A stretch of DNA of 63,873 bases, the filler included, from Psammoneis japonica (taxonomy: Eukaryota), in assembly GCA_008632985.1 (NCBI GenBank). It is 4 parts of 3 records of this genome, joined end to end, with 100 filler letters (N's around TTAATTAATTAA, not from the genome) between each part and the next. Parts side by side here need not be neighbours in the genome. Positions count along the whole stretch, not along the records: positions 1 to 10,265 come from QPGO01000228.1; positions 10,366 to 37,359 come from QPGO01000231.1; positions 37,460 to 52,919 come from QPGO01000231.1; positions 53,020 to 63,873 come from QPGO01000249.1. The stretch is one strand, 5' to 3'. Made by a program: the position numbers and the translations under genes. Positions 1 to 63,873 of this stretch are shown one piece after another. Each line of letters opens with the position of its first letter. Position 1 is the stretch's first letter. The notes below the pieces were generated by a model that saw only the letters and a list, made by a program, of their open reading frames with translations, did no database searches and had not been told where the DNA came from.

Positions 1-2104
1 GCCTAGCTAGTAGAATAGCACGCTCTCAGATGTAGATGGAGGCAACTGGTCAGATGAGACGCGGGTGTAAACAGATCATCATCAGATTGATGTTTTTAAA
101 ATAGAAGATTAAGGAAGCCTATGTAGAGCGGAAGGTAACAGCAGAGGGAGGCACGGAGGTAGCTGTAGAGACGGTAGAGTAAAAGGTTCGATGGACGCAA
201 GACGAAGGGCGTTTTGTGGAAGGTATGGGTGAGGAGGGGGCAGGGAGAGAGGAGGTGAATCGGAGGATGTGCGTAGAAAGGTGAAGAACAACGTTGTAGC
301 CAAGAGTTTGGGTGGCCCACTGGGATGGGGTGGCTGTACGGTAGGTGCTTCCAAAGCGATCGGCGGACAGGCGACGCCATGCGGAGTCAGCAGAGGGAAG
401 GATTGCAGACGGAGACGATAAAGCGTAGAGGAAGGCGGAGTAGGAGGCATCGGAGTGACGAAGGTCAGAGGAAGAGGACCAGGGTGGCTTGGGCTGAGAG
501 CAGACGGGGGGGATGTAGAACCAAAGAGCAAGCGGTGGGCAAAGTAGCCGAGACCACCAAGGTGATCGACAGTGAAGGGGAGCAGGAAGATGCCATTGTT
601 GTCAAGCGAAGAAACAACAAGGGATCCATCGGCAGAGGAAGCAGAGGGGCCAAGAAACTTCAATCTCGCGCTCGAGTGGTGTGCCTCAGTTAAGATAGGA
701 GAAGAGGGAGCAGGCAGACCTGGAGGAGGGCGAGAGGAAGCTTGAGGGACGGTGACGTCCACTGCAATGTAGTGATGGCGGGAGGGAGCGGAAAGGGAGG
801 CGGGAGGGGGGACAGAAATGCCAACATCGGCGGGACGGAGGAAGCGGGCGGGTGGGGAGCAGGTTGGTGGGTTCAAGATGAACGTCATTGGGGGATCGAC
901 AGAACTCTGCAAGAGGACCCAAAGTTTGGGCTAGGATGAAAACAGTGTCACGGAGACCATTGGAAAGCTTGGACTTGTGAGCACGGCGGCAAGAAAAGGC
1001 ATGATCACCACAGGCGTCCAGAATGGCATGGCCACAGGGACAGGGAGTGTTGACAAGGGACGGAGGAAGGATGGGGAGACGAAGCTTACGAAGGGCGGCG
1101 ACAGCGCAGGCGTCCGAAGAAAGGCGGGAGCTTGGAAAGCGACGAGAGAAGGAATGAAGAGGAAGGCTTGTAAGCGGAGACAGCAATGAAGGGAGTGAAG
1201 ATTGCACGTCGTAAGATGAGTTAGCAAGGATGGAGGTCACTGCTTGTTGCTGATGTTCGTGGTAGAGATGACGGGCCAGGCCGGGGAGAGTGGCCGATTT
1301 AACCAGGGTAGCCAAGGAAGAAGAGGAAAGGGCAGAGGCGGAAGCCAGAACGGGAGCATGACGGCGGAAGAGCGTATAGAGTCGCAGGGAAGAGCGAGGG
1401 TTGGACCAGGAAGACAGGGAGAGCCGAAAGCAGCGCGGAAGGGAAACAGAAGCGCCAGATGGTAGGCTGACACCGTGCGAAGCAAAGCGGAACGAGCGGA
1501 GAAGCGACACCAAGAAGGAAGGAATGGCGGCAGCTGTTGGGTCCCGGAGACCAAACCCGCCCAAGGAGGCAGGAAGGAAGGCGATGGCAATAGAGTGGTC
1601 GGGAAAAGGAGCGGCGAAGGAAGTGACGTAGTGTAGAAAGCGGTGAGCAACGGTGAGGAGGAAATCTTGAAACGGAGAGGTCCAGAGAAAGGGGGCGGAA
1701 GGATCATCGGGGTCGAAGTTGCAGCAGAAGTCAGCTCCAAGGAGGTGAGCAGAGGATGGAACAAAACAGTGCTTGAAGAGTTGAGCCTGGGTTTGTTTGT
1801 CATGGAGACGGGTGAGAAGCATGTCAACTTTGTCGGAGAGAGCAGAGGAGGTGTCAGAAAGGAAGGAGGTGGCGAAGTCGTGGGAGCCGAGGGGCTGTCC
1901 AAGGAAGCGAACACCAGAGGTGAGTTCGGGGTTGCAAGAGGGGTCATTGGCGGGGTTTAAGAAGGAAAGTGCAGCACGGAGAGAATCGGCGCGGGAAGGG
2001 GGAAGAGCAGGGATGGGGCTAACACCGGTGATGGAGGCGAGGATCTTGGTTTTACGGAGGTTGAGGGAGATTCCGCAGGGGGGGCACCGAGGGCGGAGAA
2101 GCGT

Positions 2105-2956
2105 TCAAGGAACCATGGGAGCACAGAATGGGGAAGGAAAGCGTGGGGCATCGTCAATGTAGGAGCCAACTGAGACAGAGGAACGGCCAGGGATACGTTC
2201 TTGAAGTTCTTGGTTAATCGGACGAAGAACCAGAGAGAGGACCAGGCTGGCGAAGACAGGGCCGAGAGGGCATCCTTGGGCAAATCCCTCTTCTTGAAGA
2301 AAGGAGCCCCAGGAAGAATCGGGTCGGCGATGCCAACATGTGTTGGAACTTTGACATAGAAGGTCAAAAAAAGGAAGCAGAGGATGAAAGGCAGGGGTGG
2401 AAGTGAGAACGTGTCGACAGGCATCTCGAGATGCTTCGTTGAACATGTTGACGAGGTCAAGAAGAAGAAGAGCCTTGGTAGAGTCGGCAGAAGAAAGACA
2501 TCGTTCAATGTTGGCAAGAGCAGAGTGCATGAGATAATCGAGGCCACCTTTGACACCAATGCCAAATTGGCCATCTGGGAGGAGGCATTCGGTAAATGCA
2601 GAACCAAAGAGAGTCATGACGACGGAGCCGGCAATGCGACGAAGAGCAGTGCCGACGCCAATGGGGCGAAGCTTGTTGAGGTCGCTGGCATCTTTATGCA
2701 AAGCGACAAAGCAGTTCGAAGCAAATAAGGAATGGACGGAGGAAGGAATGGAGCCGTGGAGCAGAAGAAGGACAAGCTCACGAAAGGATGACAAGTGGGG
2801 GCGTTTGAGCAACACCTGTTGGGGTTTTGGTGGAACAGAGGGCGCAGGACTTGAAAAGGTCGGTAGAATCAGCAAAGACACCGGCAGCAGTCCCAGGCTT
2901 ACATTTGGAGAGAGCGGAAAGAAGAGCATCAGAGGAGAGCTCAACAGGCTCATCAT
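2105..2956 (-). pseudogene. Reverse transcriptase domain of the CRE-like element
   Basis: RT motifs through SYIDD are present; frameshifts on both sides; likely Tyr>Cys/His changes (FDLLCQ, CWHRR). Confidence 0.85.
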
Positions 2957-3886
2957 GAAGGGGAGGAGGCCGAGCGAGTTGAAGGAGGATTAGGCAGGTC
3001 GGAGGGGTGCAGGCGAGGAGGGTAGAGCTTGAGGATGGCAGGAAGGCGCTCAGGAGCAACGGCAGCAACAGGAAGCGCAGAGGTGAGCTTGGAGCAGGCC
3101 GAGTGAAAGTCATCTTCGTCGGCGCAAACTTGAGCGGAGTGGCAACAGGTGGAAGCAGAAAAGTCGGGGGAAGATGAGGAGAGGCGTGGCGCATGGGAGT
3201 GGGCTTCGTGGTGGAGTTGGCGAATGCAGCCACGGCGGAAGAGGGACAAGCGGGAGGCAATGGTGGGGCCAAACTTGGAGCGTGGCGGGACAGGAGCAAG
3301 AATGAGAGCTTCAAAGAGTAAGAGCAGCTTCCAGAAGGGAGCAGAGTCACGTTGCCACATGGGAATGAGGTGGGAGGGGTCAGAGAGAGGCTGGGAGGCG
3401 GCCAGCACCCAGCTTGTCACATGATGAAGAGCAGAGCAGAGTTCCTTGCGGGCGGAGGACGAGAGCTTGCGGCGGCAGGAAGCTTGGAAAGGCGGAGGCT
3501 CGAGTGCAAGAGCATGGAGCCATTGTGGCGAGGGGCCCCAGTCACCTGGATTATGGAAGGACGAGAGAACAATGTCAGCGCCAAGGGAAGAGCGAGGAGC
3601 GAAGTGCTTGTTCTGCAAGTGATTGCGAAGGTGGGTGGTAGACAGGTGGGGTGCATTGGCTATGATCACAATGCCTGCAGACATGCAAACCAGCGGCATC
3701 GAAGAAGGACGTAGGTGCATGAGAAAGCGAGAGGCGGGGATGCTCCTGGCGAAGATGGCTGCGCACAGAAGCAGGAAGGGATGGTGCATCAATGGAAGGA
3801 GGGGACCAGGAGCAGAAGGGGCAAGTCAGCGGGGCACGGGCTTCAGTGGGTTCCACGAGGCGATGAGATCGCGGAGGGAGTCGACA

Positions 3887-5413
3887 TCAGGGGCTGCAGC
3901 CCGGATGGCTTCTTCGTAGAAAGGTTGCCAGGCAGAAAGGCGGGCCGGGGCAGTGAGCACCTACGAAGGCATCAAGGACATCCAAGAGTTCCATCTCGCG
4001 CTGGGACTGCTGGGGAGAAACCGAGTCATCAGATTCGGTCTGCACAATTGCATCGGGAGCGGTGGGGGGCGGAGAGGTCTGCAAAACTGCGGCAGGAACA
4101 GCGGGGGGCGGAGAGAGAGTGTCGGGAGAAGAGTGGGGACGTTTGGAGGGAGGAGGCTCGGTGGTGAGGGAGCGGGCTTGGGGAGGATGGGAGGAAGGAG
4201 ATGCAGTGGCAGGGAGCGGATCTTGGGGCTTGGGGAGCTGCCAGTCTTGAGCAAGCAGCTCAAGGGCACGACACGAGAAAGAATCTCGAGAGGGAGCGGG
4301 CGGCTGAAGAGCAGCAGAGGCGCAGGATGGGGAAGTCACACTGTCGTCATGGGTAGATTCCGCCACAGAGGTGAGGAGATCCAAGGGAAAGCCGGGATGG
4401 TCATGCAGGTTGGCATCCACAAGAGCAATTGTGCACGGAGACGGGAAAAAGAGCAGCTTGTGCTTGATTGGGAGGGAGTCATGAGCAGAGAAGATGGGGA
4501 TGAGGGAGTGAAGATTGGTTGCAGCAAGGAGACGACTGATGCCAGGTTGGGTGAGAGGAAGAAGAAGACGGTCAGAGACAACCACTTTCATGTTGCTCTG
4601 ACGTGAAATGAGCTCGGAGAGGGCGTTGCAGGTGGAAGCAAAGTTGGCCGGGGCTGGGAAGGGAATGATGGCAGCAGAGGTCCCCAGGATGGAGAAGGAG
4701 GCAGGTGGCGCATTGGATGGATCAGTGACATGAAGCAGGGTGTTGGCATCGGAGGCAGCAGAAATGTAAAAAACCGGAAGAGAGCGGCGTCGCGCCTGGG
4801 CCGAGTTAGCGGGGTGTTGCGAAGGACGAATTCCAACGAGATTGAGAAAGGCAGGATGGTCTCGGAAGGATTGAAGGATGGGATTGGTCGCAGTGCTGGA
4901 GATCTTGCCAACAAGGAAGGAATAAAGGCGGGATAGAAGAAACTCAGAAGTGCGTCGAGAAGAACCGCAGAGGGTTGGAGAGGGGCCAGCAAGGACACCA
5001 TGAGCCTTTTCTTCGAAAGAGTTGCAGGCCGGGATCACAAAGGTGCAGTGCCGAGCCCAAGGATCATCCACAGCCGAAACCGGAGAGAAGTCAGGGTGGA
5101 GAAAATTGGAAGGGGAGCCAGCGGAGCGGAAGGGGGTGAAGTGCGACGTAGGGTGCAGATGCCATTTCTGAAGGAGAAAAGAGAGCGCTTGGCTGCGGAA
5201 GGATTCGAAGGAAAAGGTGGTGCCGTCGGGGGTCACCGGGTGAAGAGCAACGTGAAAGTGGGATGCCCACTGATTCTGGTGAGGACAGGAGCGCTTCTTG
5301 GTTTCGGCAAGCGTCACAGAGCCAAGAGTGAGGAGGAGCGGAGAGACGCGCCGGCTGTGATGCTCTAGCGTCTTAAGAATGATGTCACGAATGACATCAG
5401 ACGCTGAGAGCAA
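3887..5413 (-). CDS. Putative ORF1 / N-terminal region of the CRE-like element (Pro/Ser-rich, function unknown)
   Basis: 508-codon ORF upstream of the zinc-finger/RT region, same strand and same pyrimidine-rich bias; non-ATG start in the ORF track. Confidence 0.4.
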   Translation of the reverse strand: MLSASDVIRDIILKTLEHHSRRVSPLLLTLGSVTLAETKKRSCPHQNQWASHFHVALHPVTPDGTTFSFESFRSQALSFLLQKWHLHPTSHFTPFRSAGSPSNFLHPDFSPVSAVDDPWARHCTFVIPACNSFEEKAHGVLAGPSPTLCGSSRRTSEFLLSRLYSFLVGKISSTATNPILQSFRDHPAFLNLVGIRPSQHPANSAQARRRSLPVFYISAASDANTLLHVTDPSNAPPASFSILGTSAAIIPFPAPANFASTCNALSELISRQSNMKVVVSDRLLLPLTQPGISRLLAATNLHSLIPIFSAHDSLPIKHKLLFFPSPCTIALVDANLHDHPGFPLDLLTSVAESTHDDSVTSPSCASAALQPPAPSRDSFSCRALELLAQDWQLPKPQDPLPATASPSSHPPQARSLTTEPPPSKRPHSSPDTLSPPPAVPAAVLQTSPPPTAPDAIVQTESDDSVSPQQSQREMELLDVLDAFVGAHCPGPPFCLATFLRRSHPGCSP

Positions 5414-6057
5414 TGCAGAGGCACGTCAGGCAGGTCAGTAGGATGAAGGACCTGAGCTAAAAGCTTAACATCAGCAGGAGGAGCGGAGGCGAGAGTAGAC
5501 ATGATCAAGCGGGAAGAGAAAGTTTGCAGAGAGTCGTTGTTGTGTGCGGATCGCCAAAAACAGCGACAAGGTCACAGAACGTGTAGAAAGATAGGAGGAG
5601 GGAAGGTGAGGGCATGACGTGGGCAATCGTACACGAATGATCGTAGAGGATGCATAGAAACATAGGGAGGAAGGCACAAGCAGAAGCGCGAAGGGAGTCA
5701 TGGAAGAGAAAGGGGCAGTAGAGAGGGCCGAAGGGTAGGGGAAGCTGTAGAGGAGTACGGAAGCAATCGTGTTCGAAGGGGCGTAGAAAGGCATGTGGAA
5801 CGATAGGAGAGGAGTCATAACTAAAGGCGCGAAGGGAGTCATGGGAGGAAGGGGGGCAATTGAAGGGATTGCTGGAGGAGGAAATGGGGAAGAGGTCAGG
5901 GAGCAGAGAGGGGCCATAGGGAAAAGAAACGAACAAGGCAGAGAGGGAGAGAGGGCATAAGGAAGAGCAGAAAGGGAAATGGCAGGGGGCAGTTGTTGGG
6001 ATGAAGAAAGGGAGTGAGGAAAAGTGAAAGGGCAATGGAATGAGCAGTTGGAAGGGC

Positions 6058-6370
6058 NNNNNNNNNNNNNNNNNNNNNNNNNNNNNNNNNNNNNNNNNNN
6101 NNNNNNNNNNNNNNNNNNNNNNNNNNNNNNNNNNNNNNNNNNNNNNNNNNNNNNNNNNNNNNNNNNNNNNNNNNNNNNNNNNNNNNNNNNNNNNNNNNNN
6201 NNNNNNNNNNNNNNNNNNNNNNNNNNNNNNNNNNNNNNNNNNNNNNNNNNNNNNNNNNNNNNNNNNNNNNNNNNNNNNNNNNNNNNNNNNNNNNNNNNNN
6301 NNNNNNNNNNNNNNNNNNNNNNNNNNNNNNNNNNNNNNNNNNNNNNNNNNNNNNNNNNNNNNNNNNNNNN
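6058..6370. other. Assembly gap (N run)
   Basis: Continuous run of N. Confidence 0.99.
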
Positions 6371-6459
6371 ATGTAGAGTAGTCACCGTACGTGCCGGTAC
6401 GCGCAAAGTGCAAGCCCGATGCCCTGCCACAAAGCAACTGCTGTACAACATGGACCGAC

Positions 6460-9400
6460 TGCTGCATTGCATGGCAGACAGAGGAGCCGCCATGGTTTGA
6501 TCGATCTGGCAATGCTTTTCTTGTGGCAGAAAAGCTGCCATCATGACTTGACTTCTGAAGCACTGAAGTGGAGACCGCCACGTGACTGCCCATGGTCCCG
6601 TGGTCCCATGGGATGTGCTGGGTGTGGGCGATGTGTTGTGACATCACATGCGTTGAGTCGGATGTGCTCATGTTCTTGTGAATGTGCACATGTCGTCAAG
6701 TAAAAACTCCCATCCCATGGTGCCCACAAATCTGGAGTTGCCTGGAACCGAACAGCCAAAGACACTTTTTCGGCCATTTCCACACCACGAAAAAAGCACG
6801 CGTCAACTCCACTCGACCATGTTGATGTCTCACGATTCTTCCCCAATGCCTTTGCAGCAGGACACCATTCTTGCTGACACTGTTGCAAATGACACTGGCA
6901 CAACAGGCAGCATCATTGCTTCTGTTCTGAACGGCCTCATGCGTGCAAAACGAGATGCCACCAACTCACGCTGTTGTTTCCTCACCAAACCGCCTCCCAC
7001 AGACACTGTCACAAATGCCAGTGCTGCACCTGCATTGGGGTCCACCGGCATGCCCAATGCTGTTGCTCATGCCATTGCTGTCACCGGCACTGTTGACAAC
7101 ATGTCATTGACTTGTGCCAATGACATCTGCAATTAAATGACGCCAACTCACACTGTTGTTTCCTCGCCAAACCGCCTCCCACAGATGCTGTCACAAATGC
7201 CAATGCTGCACCTGCGTTGGGGTCCATGGGCATGCCCAATGCTGTTGTGCTGTTGATGCTGCCACTTTGTTGTGCCAACAACATCCACAATTGAGTGGTG
7301 CCAACAACTGACGCTGCTTTCCATTCTTGCCCCACCACCTCCCACAGATGCTGTCAATGCCAACCCTGCACTGCCAGTCAACGCCATCCACAATTCCTGT
7401 GTTGGCATCTCTGTTGATGTCTTTGGCAAGCACCCTCATGCTTGGCAGCAAAACATGGGGTGCAGCATCCTTGCATCAATGCAGAACCAAAACATCCATC
7501 CTTTCTTGCTTGTCTGACCCACTGGTGGTGGCAAATCCCTTGTTCGTGACATTGTGGGGGTTTGTCTTCAAGGCATCATCCTTGCTGTCATCCCTCTGTT
7601 GTCCCTTGGTTTGGATCAGTGCCGCAAAACAATGCAATGAGCCAAACAAGGCCAGCAACACATGGACCTGTCTCAGCCTTTCATTTGGATGAGATTTCAA
7701 AGAATCCAACTCACATGCAAAGGTTCTTTGACTGGATGTGGCAGCTTTCACCTTCAGTGCATGGCACGGTTTTCCTGTTTTGCTTGCCTCAGTTGACAGT
7801 TGCCAATGATGTGCTGCTGCAGCTCCTTCTTGGCATTTTGCACAATGGTTTGCTTTCGGATGATTGCCTTGGACACAAATTCATCTTTTTGTGCCTGTCA
7901 TTTTGGTCCAAATTCCAGGGCCTCCGTGATTGCTTTCTTTTGTGGGTGCACTCAATGCATTCCATTCCCTTGCTTCTCATGACAGCAACATGCAACACAC
8001 CCAATTGTCTTGTCCACAGAGAATTTGATTGGGAGAAACATTGACCATTGCCATTGGCCATCACCTGATGACATGAGGCATCATCATGTGTCATTCTTGG
8101 TGACATTTGTGGTGATTGCCCATTCACAATTGTCTCCAACATGCTCTCTGCCTTGCTTGCAGCTGGTTCTGATGCAGACAAGTGCATTTTCTGCTCAAAC
8201 CACTGAACCAAAATTGAGACGTTTCAGGCAAACTTGTCAACATGGTTGGATTGGAGCGACGCTTTCCATTTGTTTGACATTGTCTCTCTTGTTGGGACAC
8301 CAACCAAGGAACAAAAGGCACATCACATTGCCACCTTTGTTGATTCTCTCCATGCCAATTTGCCATTCCAGCCTTGCTTTCTCTGTGCTGCCAATGCTTT
8401 TGACAGTCTTCCGACAGGACCACGTCTTGTGCAGATTCTCCCGAGACACCTTGTTGTGTGCCAACACAGCTTTGACAATGTCAAACAGCTGAAGCAGACC
8501 AAGCATGACCTTGCCGGCACCTTTGCTTGTCGTCTCATCCTCACAGGAAACTGGAGGAATTAAGATGGACACATGTGGAGGTGTGCCACACCAAACCTGT
8601 GTTTCACGTGTCATTGGAAGAAATTGCAGGAGTGGCAGAATCCCTTTGCCGCTCAGTTGGGTGTGAGCTTTTGTTGGACCTGCATCTGATCAATGGATTC
8701 TACACCAGAGGTGGGCTGAAAAGAAAAAGCAGCGCCAACCCAAGGAACACAGTTTCGGTGCATGTGTGCCACAGTTGCAAGAGACACAATTGATGCATGC
8801 CGGGCTGCACGGGTGCCAGTTGAATCTGCAGCTTCCAGAAATGCATTGGAGGTTTGGAAGGCTGCAATCAATGCATCAGCACAAAGCAAAGCAGGGTTGG
8901 ACTCACATGTGGGCATGCCACATGGCAAAGGAATGCATTGGTTGACATGAGTGATGGAGTCAGGTGGAGAGATGCCATTGGACAAGATGCAAAGTTGGGC
9001 AAGGGGCTGGACATGCGGCTTGATGAACATTCAAGAGGTGGTCTTGGCGACATTGGAGGACTGGCGGTTGCACTGAAACTCAAGCAATTCCACCACCTCA
9101 AGAAGCATGAGAAATCAATGGACAGTTGGTGCCATGAATGCAGAAACAAAACATGTGGAATGGCATGACAATGGGGCAAAGATGCACCTGAGAATTGTCA
9201 AATGTGGGTGCGCCAAAGGTTTCAGAAGCAATCAAGGACTTGTTTGCATTGTCCATGACAGTTGCACAGTTGGCAAACAAACGTGTCTTCTGCAATGGCG
9301 TTTGTTGTGTTGCCGCTTGTCCAAAACACACAGAAAGCTTTGATCTCGATGTCAAGCCCAATGATCCACACATGGCAGCAGTGTTGCGGCAGGACCATCA

Positions 9401-10265
9401 TGCAAAAGAATGAGAATTTTGGATGTGCATGATGGACATGAAAACATGCAAAACAAACCAATCCCAAATGGGAAGGAGCTGTTGTTTGGTGGAAAGGTTT
9501 TTCTTTGCCTCGCAGCTCAACAAAGTGCTCAATGCAATGCAGTGGAATGGCATTGTTTTGCAAAACTGCCAAGTGATTGCCACAACAGCAGCCTGATCAA
9601 GAATTGGGGAGGTCAAAGCCATGAACCATCCAAAACAGGAACAAATGGCAGTCTTGCATGAGCCCCTGACAAATGAAACAAAGTCATTTAACGTGGTGTT
9701 GCTTGTGCCAATGTCAAACAACTGCCGAGTCCAATCTGCAGAAATGCCACCTTGTTTGCAATGGGCCAGCTGAGCACCCAGTTTGCTGTCCTTTAAAAGT
9801 GGGTCACACTCATTGTGGCAAAGGACATGAACAGCACGGCCATTGCCCCGCAGTTCCTGCACACACCGATTGAGCATTGCAGCATGATGGTTTGTGTTTT
9901 TCACTTTTCCCAGCAGCAAACGCATGTGGTTGTTGTGCGGGAGAGTGCAGCCCACATGTGCAACGTTGCACAGGAGTGGAACATGTCACAGTGCTTGACC
10001 TCAAAAGACACAGATGCACTGCCCACCGGTGCAACAACGACAGCACCACCGCCTTGGCGAGTGCAAAGGTGCTCCAGTTCTGTTGCAGTTGAGTCTTTTT
10101 CTTGCAGTTTCTTTTGGTGGGCCTGGCTGGAAATGGTTGCTTCAATGATGAAGAAGAATTCCTTGCCAGTGCAAACAGCAATGGAGGGAGAGCCAGCACA
10201 CATGGCAGTGAGCACGGGCTTCCACGTCAGTGCAAAAGTGTCATGGGAAGAAGAAATCAAAAGAA
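6460..10265. other. TpA- and CpG-depleted hypermutated relic, origin not identifiable
   Basis: Very few TA or CG, excess TG/CA; many spurious Cys/His-rich ORFs in all frames. Confidence 0.75.
6955..7380. repeat. Degenerate tandem duplication, about 185-190 bp period
   Basis: ccaactcac..tgttgtttcctc..caaaccgcctcccacaga..ctgtcacaaatgcca recurs near 6961 and 7143, with a partial third copy near 7335. Confidence 0.8.
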
Positions 10266-10365
10266 NNNNNNNNNNNNNNNNNNNNNNNNNNNNNNNNNNN
10301 NNNNNNNNNTTAATTAATTAANNNNNNNNNNNNNNNNNNNNNNNNNNNNNNNNNNNNNNNNNNNN
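10266..10365. other. Artificial contig linker N-TTAATTAATTAA-N
   Basis: Six-frame stop spacer at 10310-10321 flanked by N runs; identical linkers at 37404 and 52964. Confidence 0.95.
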
Positions 10366-13696: not shown

Positions 13697-13754
13697 TGTC
13701 TTTATTTTTTATGTGTCATTCTACGCAAAAGCGACATCAAATGCTAGTCAAGAA

Positions 13755-45764: not shown

Positions 45765-45806
<42 letters not shown>
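45765..45806. repeat. (CTG)14 microsatellite
   Basis: Directly visible. Confidence 0.97.
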
Positions 45807-45812
<6 letters not shown>

Positions 45813-46945: not shown

Positions 46946-47089
46946 TGCTTTTGCGAGCCGACTCTCGCTTCGCTGGAGTCGAGTCAATCAAAACCTTCTG
47001 CCCACACCAGGTAAAAAATGCCGTGAGAACCACACAACTCGTTTGAAAGAGTTCCCTGTCGTTGACGAACCACCAAGCCATCAACCATG

Positions 47090-52919: not shown

Positions 52920-53019
52920 NNNNNNNNNNNNNNNNNNNNNNNNNNNNNNNNNNNNNNNNNNNNTTAATTAATTAANNNNNNNNNNNNNNNNNNNNNNNNN
53001 NNNNNNNNNNNNNNNNNNN
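52920..53019. other. Artificial contig linker
   Basis: TTAATTAATTAA at 52964-52975 between N runs. Confidence 0.95.
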
Positions 53020-53903
53020 TTCACAAAGAAGGAAACGATAATCGGAAGAACCGGTTCCCAAGACGCGTACCATACCGCCTTTCGAACGTGTTCATGTTCC
53101 ACAGGTCGGCTCTGGATTGAGCCGCTATGCAAGTACAAGTTGTGAGGCATGACCACAGAACCCAAAATCCCCGTAATGGCGAAAATGTCGCTTGCAGTGA
53201 CTTGCTCGAAGCCGTACACCCACCCAGCCATTGCTTCGTTCCATTCAACACCAACTACATTCATTTCAACCCAGAGTGCAATACTCATAATCCCCACAAA
53301 GCAGGCAATCAGGAATTCCAAAATGTTGATTCCATAGTTCATCGTTGCGAGGAAAATCATGGTGGTAATGAGTGACAGAACGACCCCCACCACGTACGGC
53401 CAGCCGAAAAAGATGTTGCACGCTATTCCAATCCCAATAACTTCGGGTAAGTCTGTGACGATTGTACTGAACTCCGCAATAAACCAGTTGAGATACCTCA
53501 TTCTATCCGTTGAATTCGATGCTTGCACTTGAGCTAGATTCACCCCTCCGTAATACGCCAGTCTCACGCAAAGAACTTGTACGTAAATGGACAGAATCGA
53601 GGTCCACCAAACACAGAACAGCAAGTAATATCTCGTAGTTGCTCCGGCTTGAACATCGGCCTGATAATTTCCTGGATCAACATAGGCGACAGAGACAAAC
53701 CAACCAGGACCAACAAAGTACCAGAAATCTCTCCAACGGTTTCCTGATGGTGACCACGGTGCAATTCGATGTGGTGATGATGATTCGTTGGAAGAAAATT
53801 CTTCTTCCTCGGCATCCTCCGTTGTTGTTGTTGTTGCATGATCGCCTTCCATGATACTTTCTGACATTGGAGGATCTGGTGCATGCATCGTTGAGAGTTC
53901 CAT
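53020..53903 (-). CDS. NRAMP: NRAMP family divalent metal transporter, 3' truncated by contig end
   Basis: GPGWFVSVAYVDPGN and GSVVMPHNLYLHS signatures; multiple TM helices. Confidence 0.95.
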
Positions 53904-54021
53904 GGGTCGAGCGAGTAAGACTTTTTAATGTTTGCGGTCTGGTGACCGCCATTTTGTTTGTGTGGTCGGTCGGACATCGCGGCGCATTGCGGCATGTTTC
54001 ATCACGCACGGCGAAAAGCGG

Positions 54022-54268
54022 ACAGACGAAATGCTTCCTGATTGACCGACCATGAACAGACCGGAATTTAGATTGAAGATTGGATCTCAGATCGATCGAT
54101 CGATCCTGAAACAAAGCTCTTTCTGCTCATCTCAACATCACAATCGACTCTTAAGTCTGATTGTGTGTTCAACGATTGCAACCAGGAAGAAGCAACATGC
54201 TCCCAACCTGTCCCAACTGCAGCGCTGTTCAACGTGCACGTCGGCTCCACCATCAGCGCAAGAACTCG
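54022..54268. repeat. About 250-bp dispersed direct repeat, second copy at 63622-63873
   Basis: aatgcttcctgattgac.gaccatgaaca...agattgaagattggatctca...gactcttaagtctgattg...ttgcaaccaggaagaagcaa present in both. Confidence 0.85.
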
Positions 54269-56888: not shown

Positions 56889-57291
56889 GAGGACAGGACT
56901 TACCAATACATAGAAATACATAGCGTTGTTCATCATTGTCTACAGTGGTATCGCGCCGTGCTTCACTCGTTCGCGTTTCGACGAGCGACTCTCAATTCTG
57001 GTGAGCGGCAGTGCCTCCGTTGCTTTTCTACGACTACAAGTACGACCAGGTACGATCAATACCACGACTACCCATGACCACGCGTGACGTGTACTTCGGT
57101 CTATAGTATGCTCTGTAGGCGCCAGTACTGATTCTACGTGAGTGCACAGTGCACAGCACAGATGTGCTGTATCCATTAATTAAATTCTCGTACTGCGGAG
57201 CTCGCACGTAGAATTCTATGGGCCCAATGTCACACGGAGTCCCACCTGGGGCTGGAACGCGTCGGGGCCACCATTTCAACACAATCAACAA

Positions 57292-58640
57292 ATGCCGGCA
57301 GACTGTCAACGTACGATGCATGCCGCAACACCTTCAGCCCCTTTCTGGGCTAAGACAATGAGTCTGCTTTTGGCCACCGTGTCATGTCAGAAAGTCATGG
57401 GACATGAAGTTGAGGTCAGTGTTGATGGCTCCGTCGTCCAGAAAACGATCCATCAGCAAGAGCATCGGGTTCGCTTCATCAACAAAAGCAGGTGCCCTGT
57501 CAACATGTGCTTTGAGGATGACAAGGAAGGCAAAAAGATCTCCACAGCCGAGGTTGGAGAGGACCGGACCATCAGGACTCTGCACCATGCCATCTTCTAC
57601 GTCACAAGACTTGGGGCTCGCGATGGTCTCTTCGATCCCGAAACGGACCTGCAGCACAGGTTTCGTGCATCCTTGCCGGATCAAGTCTTTGAGATCCCAG
57701 CAGTGGCAGAACCCTCCAAGAATCCCTGTCACAATCACTTTGCTGTCCTCTGCCCGAAGAAGGCCAAGCAGGGCGATTGCAGTCGAGAACCAGGTTGCGC
57801 AGCAATTCACTGCTGTCAGTCATGCGATGACGAGCTTGATGCAAGTCGTCTCATTGACCCAAAGGTCCGGTGCACCCGCGAATTCCTCAACATGACAGAG
57901 CCTGCTTGGCATCTGGGCGATCTCAACAAGCTCTTTACTTTGTGGGCAACCGACCCTCGCTGTGCCCAGTGCGAACCAAAGGCACACAGTTCTGTTCTCC
58001 CAATGCTGGTGCACACGGAGGAAAGGATGGCCCGTGGGTGTTGACATTTGAGAACTTTCTAACCAGCGAAGAAGTGGATGCTCTCATTGAGGGCGGGTGC
58101 TTGGAAGGGTTTCGTCGGAGCCGCACTTGTGAAGGTGAGAATGCGAACAAAAAGAGGACCACAGCGGAAGGCCGCACGAGCTCCAACGCTTGGTGCCCAC
58201 AGAAATGCTCGGCTTTGGAAGGAGTCAAGTCCGTTTGGGACAAGGTCCAAGCAGCCACTGGGGTGGCCACGTCGCATTGTGAGAGAATTCAGATCCTAAA
58301 ACGCGAAGAGAACCAGTTCCATGGCACTCACCACGATGCCAAGAAAAGAGATGTTTCGCTCAGTGGACCGTGAATCCTCACCTTTTTGCTGTGCTTGAAT
58401 GATGTTGAGGAAGGAGGTGAAACCAACTTTGATGCATTGGACATGGCGGTGAAACCAAAGAAGGGAAGGGTCCTGATTTGACCCTCCATTGCGGATGATG
58501 ATCCTGAGTGCTGTGAGAAGCGCGTGCATCACCAGGCGAAGAAGGTGGTTGGGGAACAAAGCATGCCGCAAATTTCTGGATTCGTCAGCATGATCTTGAA
58601 ATTCCAAACAGGTGGAAGTGCAACCCGACCACTGGCTGGC
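57292..58640 (+). pseudogene. P4H: ShK-domain prolyl 4-hydroxylase (2OG-Fe(II) oxygenase) pseudogene
   Basis: ShK-like C..C..GDC..P...HCCQSC; GPWVLTFENFL, RTSSNAWC, THHD, LNDVEEGGETNF, VKPKKGR, HQA; frameshift and stops. Confidence 0.85.
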
Positions 58641-58749
58641 TAGCCCCATTTCCCGCACGCAGTTCGGATGGCCCAGGAAGCACTCCAACAAGAGAAGAGA
58701 GCATGGAAAGACCCGATTGCAATGATGCAAAGTTCTTGCCAGCATTCAA

Positions 58750-59560
58750 AAGGACATCTCTAACTCCCATTGGGAAGCCCAACTGGCTGATTCTGAGAAG
58801 ATCAAAGGTCCAGAATGGACCACAGTGCACAGAAATTCAAAGAGCATGAGATGAATTTAAATTAACTTGACAGAACGTCGCTTTTGCCAGTCATGACGCA
58901 TGAATGTCAAAAGTGTCAAATGGATCCGACAATGCAGTTCGATGACCCACGCACTGTCCAAGTGGGGTCGCAAGTGTGAACAGCATCCCAGCTTCGTTTG
59001 TGGCTTTGCTGCGTGGCCGGTTGCTGGACGACTGGCAATTGATCATTCACAGCTTGCGTGTTGGATGCAAGACTTCCTTTCTCCATGAACTCAAATGTCA
59101 CAAACATTTGCTTCTTGTCAATCATGGCACCAATGACCTGAATGACCCTGGGATTGTGCAGCTTCACCAGCTGTGCCATGTCCTCTTTCATCAAACTCGA
59201 CATGCAGCCCCTGCTTCTTGTTTTGTCAGAAGAGGACCCACAGGAAAGGTTGCTGTTGAGTTGAGAGTGCCCCTGGGATGATGCTTTCACAGCAACAGGC
59301 AACAGGAGCACTGTGAAGGCACCCTTTGGTCATGATGCCAAAGGATCCTTCTCCCAAAATCTTGCCAGTCAATTGCAAATCTTCTGGTTTGATCACCCTC
59401 TGCTGCTTGGCCTTTTGGCATTCTTTTCTCACAAGAAAGAGTGCAAAGAAACTGGCAAAACAATTGCGGCAAAGGCCCAGCAAGCGATGACAATGTCGAC
59501 AATGGCACCCTCGCTCAAGCTGTCTGAGTTCTGAGTTGACTCTGGCTTGCACATGTTGAG
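58750..59560 (-). pseudogene. Receptor-like TKL protein kinase relic
   Basis: TM-like segment followed by ILGEGSFG, L..P.VIQVIGA and EFMEKGSL; frameshifted and TA depleted. Confidence 0.72.
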
Positions 59561-60127
59561 CGACTTTTGGCAGATGGACAAGAGAGGGAGGGTTGTGTCA
59601 TCGTGATTGTCACAGTCACACGTGGTTTGTTGCCAAGCAGCATCAATCAAGTCTGCCACCCCAAGTCTGTCCTCACAAGTCTTTTCAAGTCAAGCCACAA
59701 AACTCTCTTTGAGATGCTCAATGATGTGGTCATGCATTGCCGCAAAGGAGATTGCAGCCTTCAGGAAGCACACATCAAGAATGGTGTTTTGGGAACCAAG
59801 CGCTTTGCAACAGCATCCTTGCATTGCTCAGCTCCATTGATCTGTGCAGAAATGGGGAGCAAGTGCTCATTTCGAAGAGACAGAGATTTTCTGTGTTGTG
59901 TGAAAATTGTGAGATTATTTTGTGCAGAGCACGCGCATGTGCGACAGCAAGACATGGGGAGTTTGAGTCCTTCCGCGGAATCAGTCATGCTCGGTGCTGC
60001 ACGCATCATGCACAGACACTTCATGCAAGGTGAGTCACTTGCGCAACAGCCAGTCACGCTGGTCTCAGTCATGTGGACACTCCTGCAGCCTGTCACAGGT
60101 CTTGCACTGGGAGTCGCGTTGTCCAAT

Positions 60128-60565
60128 TGCAATATACAGCTACTAATAAGAGTTAATGTATCACGGCGACGTGTTACAGCCTTTAAAAGTCACAAAGGGC
60201 GTGACAAAATAACCTTTTGTCTGCATGCACACTGCATTATGAATTCATAGCGGAGTGGTTCATCTCGCATCCATTAGGCTGGAGGCCAGGGGTTCGAAAC
60301 CCCGAGTGGGAGTTGTCTGCAGCAACGTTGATCACTGTCGAACGCGTAAAACTCTGTGCAGTTCTGCATGTTCCTTCGTACGCACCCACACTGTTCCGCC
60401 AAAACCGTGCAGTGTCAGTACACGTGAGCGTAGGTCGCGTGATACATGGGGAGGAGTGCAACATACAGCTACTAATAAGAGTTAATGTATCACGGCGACG
60501 TGTTACAGCCTTTAAAAGTCACAAAGGGCGTGACAAAATAACCTTTTGTCTGCATGCACACTGCA
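60128..60565 (+). mobile_element. 438-bp TRIM-like miniature LTR element
   Basis: 109-bp direct repeats 60128-60236 and 60457-60565 (TG...CA, one visible mismatch); PPT GGGGAGGAG abutting the 3' LTR; 4-bp TSD CAAT; empty site in the paralog near 61848. Confidence 0.88.
60241..60312 (+). promoter_or_regulatory. tRNA-like segment with Pol III A and B boxes inside the TRIM
   Basis: A box TAGCGGAGTGG (60248-60258); B box GGTTCGAAACC (60291-60301) within a GGGG-TTCGAAA-CCCC T-arm; no convincing acceptor stem. Confidence 0.65.
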
Positions 60566-62161
60566 CAATGCATGCTTCTGCAGAATCAGTGTCACTGCGG
60601 ACAGCCTGCAGACGCAGGCAGGAAAGTGGCATCATCGGCGGCCATGGCAGGGATGCCTGCTGCACTCGCCCCCCATGACAAGGTTGCACGAGTGAAAAAA
60701 AGGGGCCCACTGCTGCCAAGGGACATGTTTTGTTGTGCCCGACAGCACACACTGCCTTCCCACTCATGAAGGGAGTCATTGTCATCATCTTGACATTGTT
60801 TCAGTGGACATTTTGCCACGTTTGGCCTCTGGAACATGTGCAAGCGAACACTGCATTCAGGAGCATCAAGACATTCATCAAATTGTCCAAGCTGCCAAGG
60901 TCACACAGGTCGCTGTCATGTTGGCCGTTGTCAGATTCTCAAGACCCTTTGCTGCCATGTCATCAGTGTCAGCATCAGAGTCTTCAGAGAGGGGCGCATT
61001 TTCGAAGACATCAAGTTCTCCATCTGCCTTCGCGGCATCACATGCCATGTGTTTCAATGCATTTTTTTACAGCCCATTCAACGATGACATTGAGTTCTTC
61101 ATTGTCGCGTGCGTCAGTTGTTTTCTGAGCTGACATCATCTTGGGTCACTTGACTTGAAGTTTCGGTGTCCAGCAATCATCAGTGCCGTGATTGCCTGAA
61201 CCGTGAAGCATGCACACAGTGTCACGCATCATGTCTGACTTGCTTCTTTGCCGCCAATGTTTGCTCACTTGGCACGCAATCGAGCTGTCTGCTGCACTTC
61301 TTCATCTTGGCATCTTCAGGGTCATTTTGAGGTTCATCTTTAGGAGCGCTCATTGTCAAGTGGCAAAGGTTCTGAAAAGCACTTGCACACGATTGACATT
61401 TTTGCATTTTTGCTTTCTGCTGCTCTCTCAATTGAACAGTCACAGAGAACAGGTGATTGACATTCTGTCGCACTCCACTCTTTTCTGCAGAGCGGCTGAC
61501 AGCAATGGCTGGTTGTTGAATGAAGGCTGTTCTTGCACTTGCTGGGAGCAATGTTGCTGCAACCCATGCAGAAATGGGGAGCAAGTGCTCATTTCAAAGA
61601 GACAGAGATTTTCTCTGTGTTGTGCAGAAATTGTGAGACCATTTTGTGCAGAGCATGTGTGTGTGCAGCAGGAAGACATGTGGAGTTTGAGTCCTTCTGC
61701 GGAATCAGTCACACTCAGCACTGCGTTCATCCCACGCAGACCCTTCACACAAGGTGAGTCACTTGCACGATGGCCAGTTGCATGGGTCTCAGTCATGTGA
61801 ACACTCCCACAGCCCATTGCAGGTCTTGCGCCAGGAGTCACGTCATCTGATGCACACTTCTGCAGGGTCAGCATTGCGGTGGACAGCCCACAGATGCAGG
61901 AAAGCGGCATTGTTGGCAGCCATGGCAGGGATGCCCACTGCACCATCTCTTGGATGTCCTTGTTCCACCCATTTGGCCAATGTCAAAATGCCACTTTTGG
62001 CACTGAAGCTCACACCAAAAAGCTCATTCAGTCCCATGAAAACAAGCCTGGCGCATGCTATCATGAACCACATGTTGCAAACAATGTTCAGTTCAACACA
62101 CAAGTTAAATTTTTGTCACTCAGCAGAGCTTGCAAAAAGCTTTGCCAGCTTTCAAAAGCCA

Positions 62162-62282
62162 GCACCAGCTTTTGTGGCACCAAAAAATGGGTGCCGGGGG
62201 CTTTTGTGGCACAAAAAAAATGAGCGCTGGCTTTTGCGGCACCAAAAAATGGGTGCCAGCTTTTGTGGCACCAAAAATGGGC
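62162..62282. repeat. About 30-bp minisatellite x4
   Basis: gcttttgtggcaccaaaaaatgggtgcc units with an internal GGCACC/GGTGCC inverted repeat. Confidence 0.9.
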
Positions 62283-63873
62283 TTGGATGACAACTTTGCA
62301 GCTCTGTCTCTTGATGAGATGGTGGCCTGAGGACGAGCCCTGCTTGTGCCACGTGATGCTTGCACCAGTGCAGTGCAACACAAACAAAAGCAAACATTGT
62401 GGGAAGGCCCTGCTGTGGATTTGATGAAGATCAAACTGGCCGGCTTTTCATCATTTTTGGAGAAGTTCATGACTTCAAGCTCAAATGAATCTGCAACAAA
62501 CAGCCTGTTGACCAAGCAAAACATGCCAAATGAAATGTCGCAGACACGCATTTTAAATGACATCCTTGTCTTGTTCATGCACCATCAGATGCTGTCCAAG
62601 AAACCTTTTGGCAACAAGCTGCTCTCTGCAAGCATGAATCAAACACAAGGAGGAGGACGAGGCTTCTTCAGCAACAGCAGCAAGATGCTCATCAAGTGTG
62701 TGGCCATTGGTTTGGATGCTGGCCTTGTTGGATGCAATGCATGTGCCGTGCAGCGTGACAAACAGGAGTGGCAAAAGAGTGCCATGATGCTCAAAGGGGT
62801 GATGTGGATGCCACTTCACACCACTGTTGAACAGCACATGGAAATGATTCAGCAGGCAGCTCATCTCCAAAAATGAGAACAACAAGGATTTGACCTAGAG
62901 CGAAATTGGATTGGTCTGTTGCTGCACAACATTTTCAAAAATGCGCACTGCCAGGACATGAACATTGAAGAGTGGTGTCACAAGCAAGGAACCGAACTTG
63001 CGATTCCCAACTTGATGGTGTCAATGAAATGGCAGATTGATGATGATGCAATCTGTGCTGCCAGGATGACCACAACAGCGGGGACACATTTGCTTCAGGT
63101 TGAGGTGTTGAAAGTTTGTCCCACTGACAACCGCCGCAATGACAGCGGTGAAAGCACAGAGGAGCAAACAGGCTGCAACTGCCATGTCATCAGGTTGGAT
63201 GATGACAAGAACGCAATTGCTGCCAGATGTGGCAGCCTTGCTGGCCAGGTGGAAAGCTCTGGCCCTGGTTTCTCCTGTGACTTTGAAAACTGCTCGGGCT
63301 GTTCGTCATGGAAGAATCAGTCATTGTCGGTGCACTGTGCACTCTGCACCCCCACGAACCCAAACAAGTGCCGCAGTTGATTTTTGTGAAGTTCACTTTG
63401 TGCCAGTCTCTGGCCTGCATTCCATCTTGCTTCTGACTTTTAAAGACTCGAGGGAAAGTTGGCATTCAATCATTTGTGCTTGCGACCTTGTCCTTTTTTC
63501 ATCATGCTGCAACAAAGCATCGTGGACTCATTTTCCTTCTTCTTCCTAAGATGCAACATGCTGTGCTGTTGATTGTGTTCTTTTGCAACAGCAGCATTTA
63601 CACTCAAACTTTAAGCCTGATGCAGATGAAATGCTTCCTGATTGACTGACCATGAACAAACCAGAATCCAGGAAAGATTGAAGATTGGATCTCATCAGAT
63701 CGATCGACCCTGAAACAAAGCTCGTCGCATCACCACAATGGACTCTTAAGTCTGATTGCGTGTTCAATAATTGCAACCAGGAAGAAGCAAGAACATGCTC
63801 CCAACTTTTCCCACTGTGTGATGTGCTGCATGTTGGCCCCTCGCCACCTGCGTTCTATCTGCACAACGAACTC

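Follow-up and report, generated by a model that had tools for sequence, protein, structure and literature searches.

Candidate context-specific hypermutation of TpA in repeat and non-genic DNA of a diatom-type genome

Why are long blocks of the Psammoneis japonica genome nearly devoid of the dinucleotide TpA when the genes beside them are not? The window analyzed here, 63,873 nucleotides of assembly GCA_008632985.1, consists of several contigs joined by linkers, and three of its depleted blocks (6451–10265, 35816–37359, and 45166–52919) end at contig joins. Depleted segments were called by a two-state HMM on T followed by A, with expected TA taken from base composition. Summed over these segments, seven blocks of about 28 kb hold 84 TA against 1786 expected (observed/expected, o/e, 0.05), whereas the DNA between them holds 1162 against 2032 (o/e 0.57) and its genes are not depleted, as the original prediction of TA-poor blocks separated by TA-normal genes had it. 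TG and CA both reach an o/e of 1.6–2.0 inside the blocks, AT, AA, and TT have the same o/e inside as outside, and GC content is 0.47–0.52 in blocks versus 0.43–0.48 in genic DNA. The probable explanation is a DNA-level, context-specific hypermutation that turns TpA into TpG or CpA in repeat and non-genic DNA of this diatom-type genome, with a TadA/ADAT2-like or other CDA-fold adenine deaminase as the putative agent.

The HMM segments and TA positions show block edges that are sharp to tens of bases (10 edges). The first block, 6451–10265, is repeat-like DNA of no assigned family (HMM segment 6451–10310; observed/expected TA 6/247 and CG 73/230; TG and CA o/e 1.9), and a Pfam search of its ORFs of at least 80 aa gave zero matches. 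Between two genic regions lies 19658–25030 (TA 19/380, CG 27/294), at whose left edge dense TA stops at 19653 and the next TA is at 19931. Near 35816, TA occurs every ~5–50 bp up to 35814 and then not for more than 400 bp, marking the start of TA/CG-depleted block 35816–37359 (HMM segment 35816–37686; TA 4/117, with three of these in an assembly linker). Two further TA/CG-depleted blocks are 41515–44495 (TA 6/200, CG 22/171) and 45166–52919 (HMM segment 45166–52964; TA 27/455, CG 142/515), the latter containing a Copia copy. In 57359–60127 (HMM segment 57359–60128; TA 9/166) CG loss is only moderate (97/180), and the last block, TA/CG-depleted 60566–63872 (HMM segment 60544–63872; TA 13/221), holds a diverged paralogue, 61567–61943, of 59845–60665. 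None of these blocks is assigned a strand. The HMM agrees with the block coordinates first proposed except in two places: the block given as 57300–63550 is interrupted by a TA-normal island (60133–60539) and extends to 63872, and within 1650–5350 depletion is clear only at 3029–5364.

The pattern could be a sequencing or assembly artefact in which a modified base in repeats is miscalled, so that TA is read as TG or CA; the window, as a draft pseudomolecule, is pieced together from linker-joined contigs, and the public runs found all come from a single sample of one study, as contigs. Contigs built independently from run X1, which is that one sample and possibly the assembly's own source, cover all 30 bins of 17500–37300 with 90–100% likeness, both blocks included. 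Among 40 of the 557 differences between window and contigs, one (at 21770) restores a block TA and four are TG↔CA flips. Such flips and TA/CA differences might hint at de novo mutation, though alleles or paralogues may equally be their source. In the Copia copy and in a pseudogene described below, TA loss goes together with frameshifts, stops, and CpG decay, as in real old pseudogenes, and miscalling would not account for paralogues that differ stably, one with TG and one with CA. We regard an artefact as very unlikely and continue with hypermutation.

The direction of change is recorded in a degenerate diatom-type Ty1/copia coding region at 48565–52540 (+ strand; aa 1–1311 of ~1344), recovered by tblastn as 7–8 pieces in three frames, with several frameshifts and stops, a TA o/e of 0.051, and a CG o/e of 0.224. 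Columns were taken as conserved where at least 80% of at least 30 intact homologues (101 queries) share the same residue. Not one of 23 conserved Tyr is kept: 12 have become Cys, 10 His, and one a TGA stop, and none has become Phe, Asn, Asp, or Ser. Four other residues are retained at ~90–95% (Phe 16/17, Asn 18/19, His 10/11, Gln 9/10). The anticipated excess of A>G at TA is present, with codon-position-2 A>G at 12/23 Tyr versus 1/139 Asp, Glu, Gln, His, Asn, and Lys codons (Fisher p = 4e-11). The residue changes named at the outset recur in our translations, which read HVDD (51509), WCDW, HCLGP, AEHA, ENAC, and ALCSLKS where the consensus of relatives reads YVDD, WYEW, RYLGP, AEYA, ENAY, and ALYGLKS. 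For this copy, comparison with intact homologues proves the direction TpA to TpG/CpA. Its relatives might equally have lacked TA; all 80 of 80 intact metagenomic relatives have a TA o/e of 0.48–0.92, and 0 of 240 relatives among the matches listed are Tyr-poor. Judged against these relatives, TA loss is not a trait of this Copia family and arose in the copy.

TA is under-represented in most genomes, and the genes here are also TA-poor (o/e 0.57), which would suit intrinsic composition, GC-biased gene conversion, or selection, for instance against sites cut by a TA-specific nuclease. The TA content of the relatives speaks against these explanations, as do the destruction of catalytic and invariant Tyr, including YVDD>HVDD, a block GC that scarcely exceeds the genic value, and A>G outside TA at 1/139. 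We give them practically no weight.

The TpA changes fall on either strand. Cys and His follow each other in random order along the Copia copy (11 runs versus 11.9 expected), and counts of TG balance those of CA across 51 windows of 500 bp (z-variance 0.84). Double flips between TG and CA occur 40 times across six block pairs (1250 aligned columns) and twice across six genic pairs (2491 columns; p = 2e-17); for the block with paralogues 61567–61943 and 59845–60665, one alignment of 277 columns has 12 and another of 98 columns has 6. These results show paralogous copies that were mutated independently, after duplication, and a process that uses both strands. The prediction of a separate A:T>G:C process on both strands of repeat DNA is upheld by the ratio of 12 Cys to 10 His, the double flips between paralogues, and a context rule distinct from CpG decay. 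The same process had been called adenine-directed, of which the A:T>G:C change at TpA stands and adenine as the target is putative: TA is its own complement, so that in sequence A>G at T[A] looks identical to T>C at [T]A and the two chemistries are inseparable in such data.

The context rule emerges from TA counts in depleted versus normal DNA, which are 1/383 for RTAY, 8/315 for RTAR, 11/282 for YTAY, and 61/172 for YTAR (chi-square p = 2e-39). The corresponding per-kb ratios are 0.003, 0.027, 0.041, and 0.37, where genic DNA stands in for the ancestral distribution of contexts and a single surviving site underlies the RTAY term. YTAR makes up 75% of the 81 surviving block TAs. These counts show RTAY erased, RTAR and YTAY nearly erased, and YTAR largely surviving, which fits a per-strand target of 5'-TAY-3'. 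The ratios also fit strands acting independently, because 0.054 squared is 0.003. The most enriched products, NTGC and GCAN, derive from TAC. Tyr codons after a pyrimidine have yielded 8 Cys to 2 His and those after a purine 4 to 8 (p = 0.04; 0.07 in a relaxed version); the R..Y excess that the rule would predict at the flanks of TG↔CA flips is absent. Segment 3029–5364, purine-rich and of a different sequence type, is partly depleted of TA (13/92), with a CG of 125/171 (o/e 0.73) and a weaker TG/CA excess. RTAY is missing there (0 versus 20 expected), and its surviving TAs are RTAR, not YTAR. The early description of 1650–5350 as a hypermutated block is apt in part only, and action of the same process there is possible, not secure.

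CG is co-depleted with TA in the blocks (450/1690, o/e 0.27, versus 1642/1640 outside), a loss that the original prediction does not mention. Diatom TEs are CpG-methylated. In the Copia copy 14 of 43 conserved Arg are kept, and 24 of 43 have become Trp, His, Gln, Cys, or stop. Deamination of 5-methylcytosine as the sole cause was rejected: it explains the CG loss and not the TA loss of 84/1786. CG o/e varies from 0.09 to 0.54 among blocks that all lie near a TA o/e of 0.05, and CG loss follows W versus S flanks, not R versus Y. By these measures CpG loss is decoupled from TpA loss. The parallel conversion of CpG to TpG/CpA would be ordinary methylated-CpG decay as it occurs in diatom TEs, a separate, slower process with its own flank dependence and block-to-block variation, which cannot remove TA.

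A thymine-based chemistry is a less likely source of the TA loss; TA is palindromic, so T>C at R-T-A fits every result equally. The T in 5'-RTA-3' might be modified by a TET/JBP-type enzyme (hydroxymethyluracil or a base-J-like derivative) and mispair with G; dinoflagellates carry hydroxymethyluracil at TpA, and we know of no modified thymine in diatoms. Alternatively, 5mC-linked T:G repair might miscorrect T to C in methylated chromatin, in the manner of the VSP repair that depletes CTAG in Escherichia coli, and the CpG-decay mark of methylated DNA in the blocks would bring such repair there. Repair bias is limited by mismatch supply and therefore matches near-100% conversion poorly, and the rate of 6e-7 per site per generation in Bigelowiella natans (see below) is likewise hard to reconcile with it. 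The decoupling of CpG and TpA losses between blocks, with different flank rules, weighs against thymine chemistry in general, which we consider unlikely.

The TpA loss has also reached DNA other than transposons, to which the original prediction had confined it. At 57466–58624 (+ strand) lies a pseudogene of a host-type ShK and 2OG-Fe(II) prolyl-4-hydroxylase-like gene (homologues to E = 1.7e-42; tblastn in three frames) with two frameshifts and internal stops; its relatives have PF13640 and ShK. None of its three conserved Tyr is kept, one Arg has become TGA, and one Trp a stop. A protein-kinase-like fragment lies in the same depleted block at 58919–59329 (− strand; PK_Tyr_Ser-Thr, E = 3.8e-5, 23.6 bits versus a cut-off of 23.1).

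These targets bear on another route, in which double-stranded retrotransposon RNA would be edited A-to-I by an ADAR-like enzyme and the changes fixed through reverse transcription and reintegration. One target is indeed a retrotransposon. Against this route, ADAR's 3' neighbor preference is G, whereas here it is pyrimidine. Non-retroelement DNA is affected, including the pseudogene, and block edges reach kilobases past the Copia coding region. Sense-strand A>G equals T>C (12 Cys to 10 His), conversion is near-complete, and paralogues were altered independently after duplication. ADAR does favor a 5' U (bioRxiv 10.64898/2026.01.13.699255, Discussion), yet with so much against it we find this route scarcely credible.

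Some sequences are untouched. A young miniature LTR element of 438 bp at 60128–60565 (+ strand), in which a pair of 109-bp direct repeats (TG...CA) encloses a ~220-bp core and which has CAAT on both sides, is unmutated (TA 26/28 in island 60133–60539; CG 24/23). It is missing from paralogous copy 61567–61943, and its two LTRs differ once, by TA versus CA at an ATAT site. An unmutated element inside a block means that the process is not simply regional and continuous and must be episodic, ended, or length- or copy-dependent. A 1.5-kb gene duplicate pair (25375–26883 and 31315–32811; 85% identity) is also unmutated, whereas both copies are mutated in paralogous pairs within blocks.

We propose that mutation strikes both strands once the DNA has arrived, stops abruptly at domain limits, and outpaces ordinary decay by far, and that its targets are the Copia retrotransposon, repeats of no assigned family, the dead prolyl-hydroxylase gene copy, and the kinase fragment. 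The agent may be a deaminase of the TadA/ADAT2-like or another CDA-fold class. Such an enzyme would turn the adenine of 5'-TAY-3', on either strand, into inosine, which is read as G, and would serve as a genome defense by being drawn to chromatin that is silenced and CpG-methylated.

The original prediction knew of no description of such a process; TpA>TpG/CpA hypermutation is reported in B. natans by Mettrop et al. (bioRxiv 10.64898/2026.01.13.699255). That preprint describes de novo mutations of this type in 11 of 15 mutation-accumulation lines, with A>G or T>C accounting for 230 of 231 in two viral inserts, every one of them at TpA, and a rate of 6e-7 per site per generation (about 1e-7 to 1e-6 in some clonal lines). 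Its targets are integrated NCLDV and virophage DNA that retains a TpA content of 3.3%, and reverse transcriptase and DDE domains are overrepresented among low-TpA CDS. The agent proposed there is an ADAT2-like adenine deaminase, and the process is likened to RIP. As reported there, the change shares with ours its confinement to A:T>G:C at TpA, strand-dependent TpG or CpA products, foreign or non-genic DNA, and sharp bounds. The host, however, is a rhizarian and not a diatom-type stramenopile, and mutations were caught de novo, whereas the P. japonica blocks present a saturated footprint in TEs and pseudogenes, known from sequence alone. "Trinucleotide," "flanking," "CpG," and "diatom" do not occur in the preprint's main text, supplements apart, so the TAY rule, CpG co-depletion, and escape of a short young element are additions here, although the supplements may hold contexts. 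The B. natans signature, as read from base composition and substitutions, is now in a second lineage, and the process is peculiar neither to one species nor to viral inserts. More tentatively, a natural, chromatin-guided DNA adenine deaminase with 5'-TAY-3' specificity, erasing TpA from invading and duplicated DNA, might be common to diatoms and chlorarachniophytes, either inherited within SAR or evolved convergently.

RIP in Neurospora and other Pezizomycotina depends on RID/DIM-2, is premeiotic, and is triggered by duplication with a length threshold. It resembles the process here in its single transition class and dinucleotide context, sparing single-copy genes and killing TEs and duplicated genes. 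Fungal RIP itself was ruled out: it requires C>T changes at CpA (or CpN) that create TpA with a drop in GC, whereas here TpA is destroyed, CA and TG are ~1.9-fold enriched, and GC is not lowered. To our knowledge, the well-studied mutational genome defenses (RIP, APOBEC/AID) all deaminate cytosine, and the natural substrate context of TadA/ADAT2 is U-A in the tRNA anticodon loop. RIP is described as C>T mainly at CpA, generating TpA (PMC2621366). Wild-type TadA is described as dependent on UACG and TadA-8e as favoring UA (PMC12296453); this U-A context matches the 5'-TA(Y) target, of which TAC products are the most enriched. Wild-type EcTadA is reported not to mutate DNA, and amphioxus BjADAT2, one eukaryotic ADAT2 shown to edit DNA, deaminates it in TCG and GAA contexts (PMC10354150), so its adenine context, GAA, differs from TAY.

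A natural A:T>G:C system that removes TpA has one prior report, a 2026 preprint on an unrelated rhizarian alga. If diatoms and chlorarachniophytes do share such a deaminase, no natural eukaryotic genome defense that edits DNA from A to I would precede it; it would mirror RIP/APOBEC and be nature's equivalent of the adenine base editors made in the laboratory. Base editing would itself stand to gain from a natural DNA adenine deaminase. For the enzyme search, a second genome allows comparative subtraction, and the TAY versus TAR rule lets candidate deaminases be tested.

TE dating by LTR divergence or Kimura distance is unreliable in such genomes because TA and CG sites saturate while others barely diverge. 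Annotation suffers as well, as TA loss drives TE proteins under Pfam detection; Pfam searches of ORFs gave no RT profile match despite a near full-length Copia in the window. TA loss also removes two of the three stop codons and so opens long spurious ORFs in all frames.

TA dinucleotides are nearly absent from long stretches of this DNA, where their observed/expected ratio in 1-kb windows drops to 0.00–0.10 versus 0.4–0.8 in the DNA between. A two-state hidden Markov model on "T followed by A" called the depleted segments, or blocks, and seven are strong: 6451–10310 (6 TA observed, 247 expected), 19658–25030 (19 and 380), 35816–37686 (4 and 117), 41515–44495 (6 and 200), 45166–52964 (27 and 455), 57359–60128 (9 and 166), and 60544–63872 (13 and 221). 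Together they contain 84 TAs where base composition predicts 1786, whereas normal segments contain 1162 where 2032 are predicted, confirming the TA depletion described in the original prediction. The block edges are sharp. Near 35816, TAs are spaced 5–50 bp apart up to 35814 and then absent for more than 400 bp, and near 19658, dense TAs stop at 19653 and the next is found at 19931. TG and CA are each about 1.6–2.0-fold above expectation in the blocks, and CG is depleted there as well (450 observed and 1690 expected, versus 1642 and 1640 outside), a point absent from the original prediction.

With TAA and TAG lost, TGA is the sole stop codon remaining, and therefore stop-free frames of 80–280 aa occur in all six frames of the blocks (192 stop-to-stop ORFs of at least 80 aa). 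Their translations have an excess of Cys, His, and Gln. A Pfam scan of these 192 ORFs gave no reverse transcriptase, integrase, or transposase match, only a kinase match at the borderline and three others below threshold and at chance level; Pfam is insensitive to such mutated, frameshifted remnants. Gene callers will thus overpredict in such DNA, and Pfam missed a reverse transcriptase that is present there, that of the Copia considered next. For four blocks (6451–10265, 19658–25030, 35816–37359, and 41515–44495) no identity was found, and their longest ORFs look non-coding.

The direction of change can be read from the Copia, a degenerate diatom-type Ty1/copia coding region. An ORF at 49859–50932 matches Ty1/copia polyproteins (PF07727) with E-values down to 4e-97, and tblastn recovers a near full-length Copia at 48565–52540 on the plus strand, split into 7–8 pieces over three frames. 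Its named relatives are from the diatom Fragilaria crotonensis; self-blastn found no LTR pair, and its 3′ end reaches the contig end. The codon test used 101 relatives of at least 900 aa and 525 codons at which at least 30 relatives aligned with at least 80% agreement. None of 23 conserved Tyr codons is retained (12 are Cys, 10 His, and 1 TGA), and every change in these columns is TA>TG or TA>CA. Control residues are largely intact: Phe 16/17, Asn 18/19, His 10/11, and Gln 9/10. The A>G change at the second codon position affects 12 of the 23 Tyr codons versus 1 of 139 codons for Asp, Glu, Gln, His, Asn, and Lys combined (p 4e-11). Conserved Arg is retained at 14 of 43 positions, and its replacements (His 7, Trp 6, Gln 6, stop 3, and Cys 2) match the CpG-decay set. 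Individual residues cited in the original prediction are borne out. HVDD, proposed to derive from YVDD at 51509, is seen in translation at a site that is Tyr in 97 of 98 relatives, and WCDW, HCLGP, AEHA, ENAC, and ALCSLKS stand against the relatives' consensus WYEW, RYLGP, AEYA, ENAY, and ALYGLKS.

TA loss is not a property of the Copia family. In the best 80 metagenomic loci encoding Copia relatives, TA observed/expected is 0.48–0.92 (median 0.70) and CG 0.31–1.17, versus 0.051 and 0.224 for the Copia of the window, and none of these 80 best-scoring loci falls below 0.48 for TA. Three fragments of the Copia contain no Tyr in 614 residues; among the protein relatives listed, none of 120 longer and none of 120 near-length sequences has less than 1.4% Tyr (medians 3.8–3.9%). 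Both relative sets are best-scoring matches of word- or pattern-seeded searches and are biased toward intact copies, and they say nothing against the process operating elsewhere.

The changes are distributed over both strands. In the Copia, sense-strand A>G (giving Cys) is about equal to T>C (giving His), and the two are randomly ordered along its length (11 runs versus 11.9 expected). TG and CA counts are symmetric across 51 windows of 500 bp each, and neither this symmetry nor the Cys/His order reveals any strand-coordinated tract. Paralogues within blocks differ by adjacent double mismatches in which TG in one copy faces CA in the other, 40 such flips per 1250 aligned columns in six pairs versus 2 per 2491 columns in six genic pairs (p 2e-17). 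Such a flip is the expected product of one ancestral TA (or CG) that was resolved independently in two copies. In the best pair, 59845–60119 and 61567–61843, flips or single TA- or CG-context changes account for 38 of 50 mismatches, and 12 are of other kinds. These patterns in the sequence support a DNA-level process that acts after duplication and on both strands, and with them the separate A:T>G:C mutator of the original prediction.

Survival of TA depends on its flanks. With those in assembly linkers excluded, 81 of the 84 block TAs were left (27.8 kb) for comparison with 1152 TAs in normal DNA (29.3 kb), genic DNA serving as a proxy for the ancestral context distribution. With R for purine and Y for pyrimidine, RTAY occurs once in depleted and 383 times in normal DNA (per-kb ratio 0.003), RTAR 8 and 315 times (0.027), YTAY 11 and 282 times (0.041), and YTAR 61 and 172 times (0.37), a difference in distribution with a chi-square p of 2e-39. 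A per-strand target of 5′-TAY-3′ (the TAY rule) predicts this four-class order, since the target lies on both strands in RTAY, on one in RTAR and YTAY, and on neither in YTAR. With survival of 0.61 on a poor strand and 0.054 on a good strand, the predicted RTAY value of 0.003 equals that observed, a term that reflects one site. Complementary tetranucleotides behave similarly (TTAC 0.088 and GTAA 0.065; CTAC 0.024 and GTAG 0.011). The most enriched products, NTGC (1.7–2.65-fold) and GCAN (1.65–2.1-fold), point to TAC as the best site. At conserved Tyr codons, which are TAY on the sense strand, Cys:His is 8:2 after a pyrimidine and 4:8 after a purine (p 0.04), or 12:3 versus 8:10 in a looser set at 50% conservation (p 0.07). 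Flanks of the TG/CA flips (Y..Y 12, R..Y 11, R..R 5, and Y..R 4) have no clear pattern and lend the TAY rule no clear support, since the set also contains flips that arose from CpG.

The loss of CpG is decoupled from that of TA. Among blocks with TA observed/expected of about 0.05, CG observed/expected varies from 0.09 (19658–25030) to 0.54 (57359–60128), and therefore TA loss saturates first. CG survival is set by A/T versus G/C flanks (TCGA 0.16, GCGC 0.63) and not by the purine/pyrimidine rule. This behavior fits a separate process, ordinary 5mC deamination; diatom transposable elements carry CpG methylation. The original prediction placed a further block at 1650–5350, and here the outcome is mixed. 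TA is partly depleted at 3029–5364 (13 versus 92 expected; RTAY 0 versus 20 expected), but the survivors are RTAR, TG and CA observed/expected are only 1.2–1.5, and CG is at 0.73. This segment may be a less advanced or a different case and is not counted as secure. It lies in a purine-rich stretch at 1–6057 (about 70% purine on the plus strand, GC skew +0.43, AT skew +0.35, GC 0.56) that has no Pfam match and whose pyrimidine-rich strand has long stop-free frames in all three phases.

A modified base in repeats that is miscalled, or an assembly error, could mimic TA loss. We compared three public runs (X1–X3), all from one sample of one study, as contigs; no RNA run was listed. Contigs of X1 span 30 of 30 bins of 17500–37300 at 90–100% likeness, those of X2 span 19 of 30 with no bin inside either block, and no X3 contig matched this interval. 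Public reads assembled independently thus also show the TA-free state. This weakens the artefact explanation but does not remove it, as those reads may come from the very sample behind the assembly and 40 of the 557 differences between X1 and the window are listed. Those 40 include, in block 19658–25030, four CA/TG flips, four changes from TA in the window to CA (all at YTAR), and one from TG to TA; CG is involved in four. Among the 40 of 557 differences listed, alleles, strains, or paralogues differ in the manner predicted by the hypermutation process.

The targets are not confined to transposons. An ORF at 57184–58041 has 74 relatives (best E-value 1.7e-42), the longer of which bear ShK and 2OG-Fe(II) oxygenase domains, and tblastn identifies a near-complete gene copy at 57466–58624 with two frameshifts, an Arg>TGA change, a Trp>stop change, and none of three conserved Tyr retained. 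A kinase-like fragment, a borderline Pfam match, lies at 58919–59329 (−). The proposal that transposons are the targets holds for a Copia but is too narrow, as this gene copy and the kinase-like fragment are affected too.

Some sequences escape. A TA-normal island at 60133–60539 (TA 26 observed and 28 expected, CG 24 and 23) is part of a 438-bp insertion at 60128–60565 that is missing from the paralogue at 61567–61943. Its two 109-bp TG...CA direct repeats and the CAAT at both flanks identify it as a miniature LTR element. The sole difference between its LTRs, a single observation, is TA versus CA at an ATAT site. The element is young: it landed in a repeat that had already been hypermutated, and it is itself unmutated. 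A tRNA scan found no tRNA gene in it, although its core has a T-arm-like stretch, and an Rfam scan gave only a chance-level miRNA match, located outside the element. A genic direct duplication, 25375–26883 and 31315–32811 (1.5 kb, 85% identity, 5.9 kb apart), is likewise normal in TA and CG. The process is therefore not uniform across the region: it must come in episodes, have ended, or hinge on length, copy number, or chromatin state. Short dispersed repeats of 79–82% identity (13812–13961 with 38163–38313; 54023–54215 with 63623–63813), outside blocks or at a block edge, have no TG/CA flips and may be small non-autonomous elements that evade the mutator. One X1 contig and one X2 contig link 26236 to 32258, omitting 6021 bases, and a collapsed or recombinant form of the 1.5-kb duplication may exist.

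The original prediction knew of no description of such a process, and one has since been found. In mutation accumulation lines of Bigelowiella natans, 230 of 231 mutations in integrated NCLDV and virophage DNA were A>G or T>C changes, every one of them at TpA; they arose in 11 of 15 lines, at a rate of about 6e-7 per site per generation. That genome has 324 low-TpA coding sequences in which RT and DDE domains are overrepresented, and the agent proposed is a homologue of ADAT2 (Mettrop et al., bioRxiv 10.64898/2026.01.13.699255). The words trinucleotide, flanking, CpG, and diatom do not occur in the main text of that preprint. Among the titles and abstracts searched, none was on diatom TpA or retrotransposon hypermutation, and the matches listed for A-to-G repeat hypermutation were only APOBEC, ADAR, and base-editor papers. 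The TA erasure described here extends to a second lineage a phenomenon described once, in 2026. It adds the TAY rule, a CpG decay decoupled from TA loss, targets other than transposons, and a short young element that escaped. Among possible mechanisms, adenine deamination has the best support, although it is unproven. The responsible enzyme would be TadA/ADAT-like and act on T-A-(C), for which a rationale is that wild-type TadA is reported to require UACG and TadA-8e to prefer UA (PMC12296453). Amphioxus ADAT2 is reported to deaminate DNA in TCG and GAA contexts (PMC10354150), and the known DNA-active ADAT2 therefore does not match the signature here.

The window is a pseudomolecule, made by joining contigs end to end. 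Its three identical 100-base linkers (10266–10365, 37360–37459, and 52920–53019) each consist of 44 N, a 12-base six-frame stop spacer, and 44 N, and gene order across them is therefore no evidence of linkage; an N gap lies at 6058–6370. Contig ends terminate three depleted blocks, as happens with repeats, and truncate the ORFs at 10310–13708 and 52968–53924. A 59-bp match of 98% identity (36991–37049 and 52857–52915) lies near two different contig ends, both in TA-depleted blocks, and these ends probably fall within copies of a single repeat. For the CAF16-type ABC gene at 17388–18476, every relative that carries a name is from a diatom, with identity up to 76%; with the Fragilaria relatives of the Copia, this is the ground for treating the genome as diatom-type. 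At 33957–35079, in GC-richer genic DNA with normal TA, repeats 93 to about 250 bp long (70–91% identity), both tandem and dispersed, probably belong to a repeat-containing protein gene, and contig depth in both X1 and X2 peaks there.
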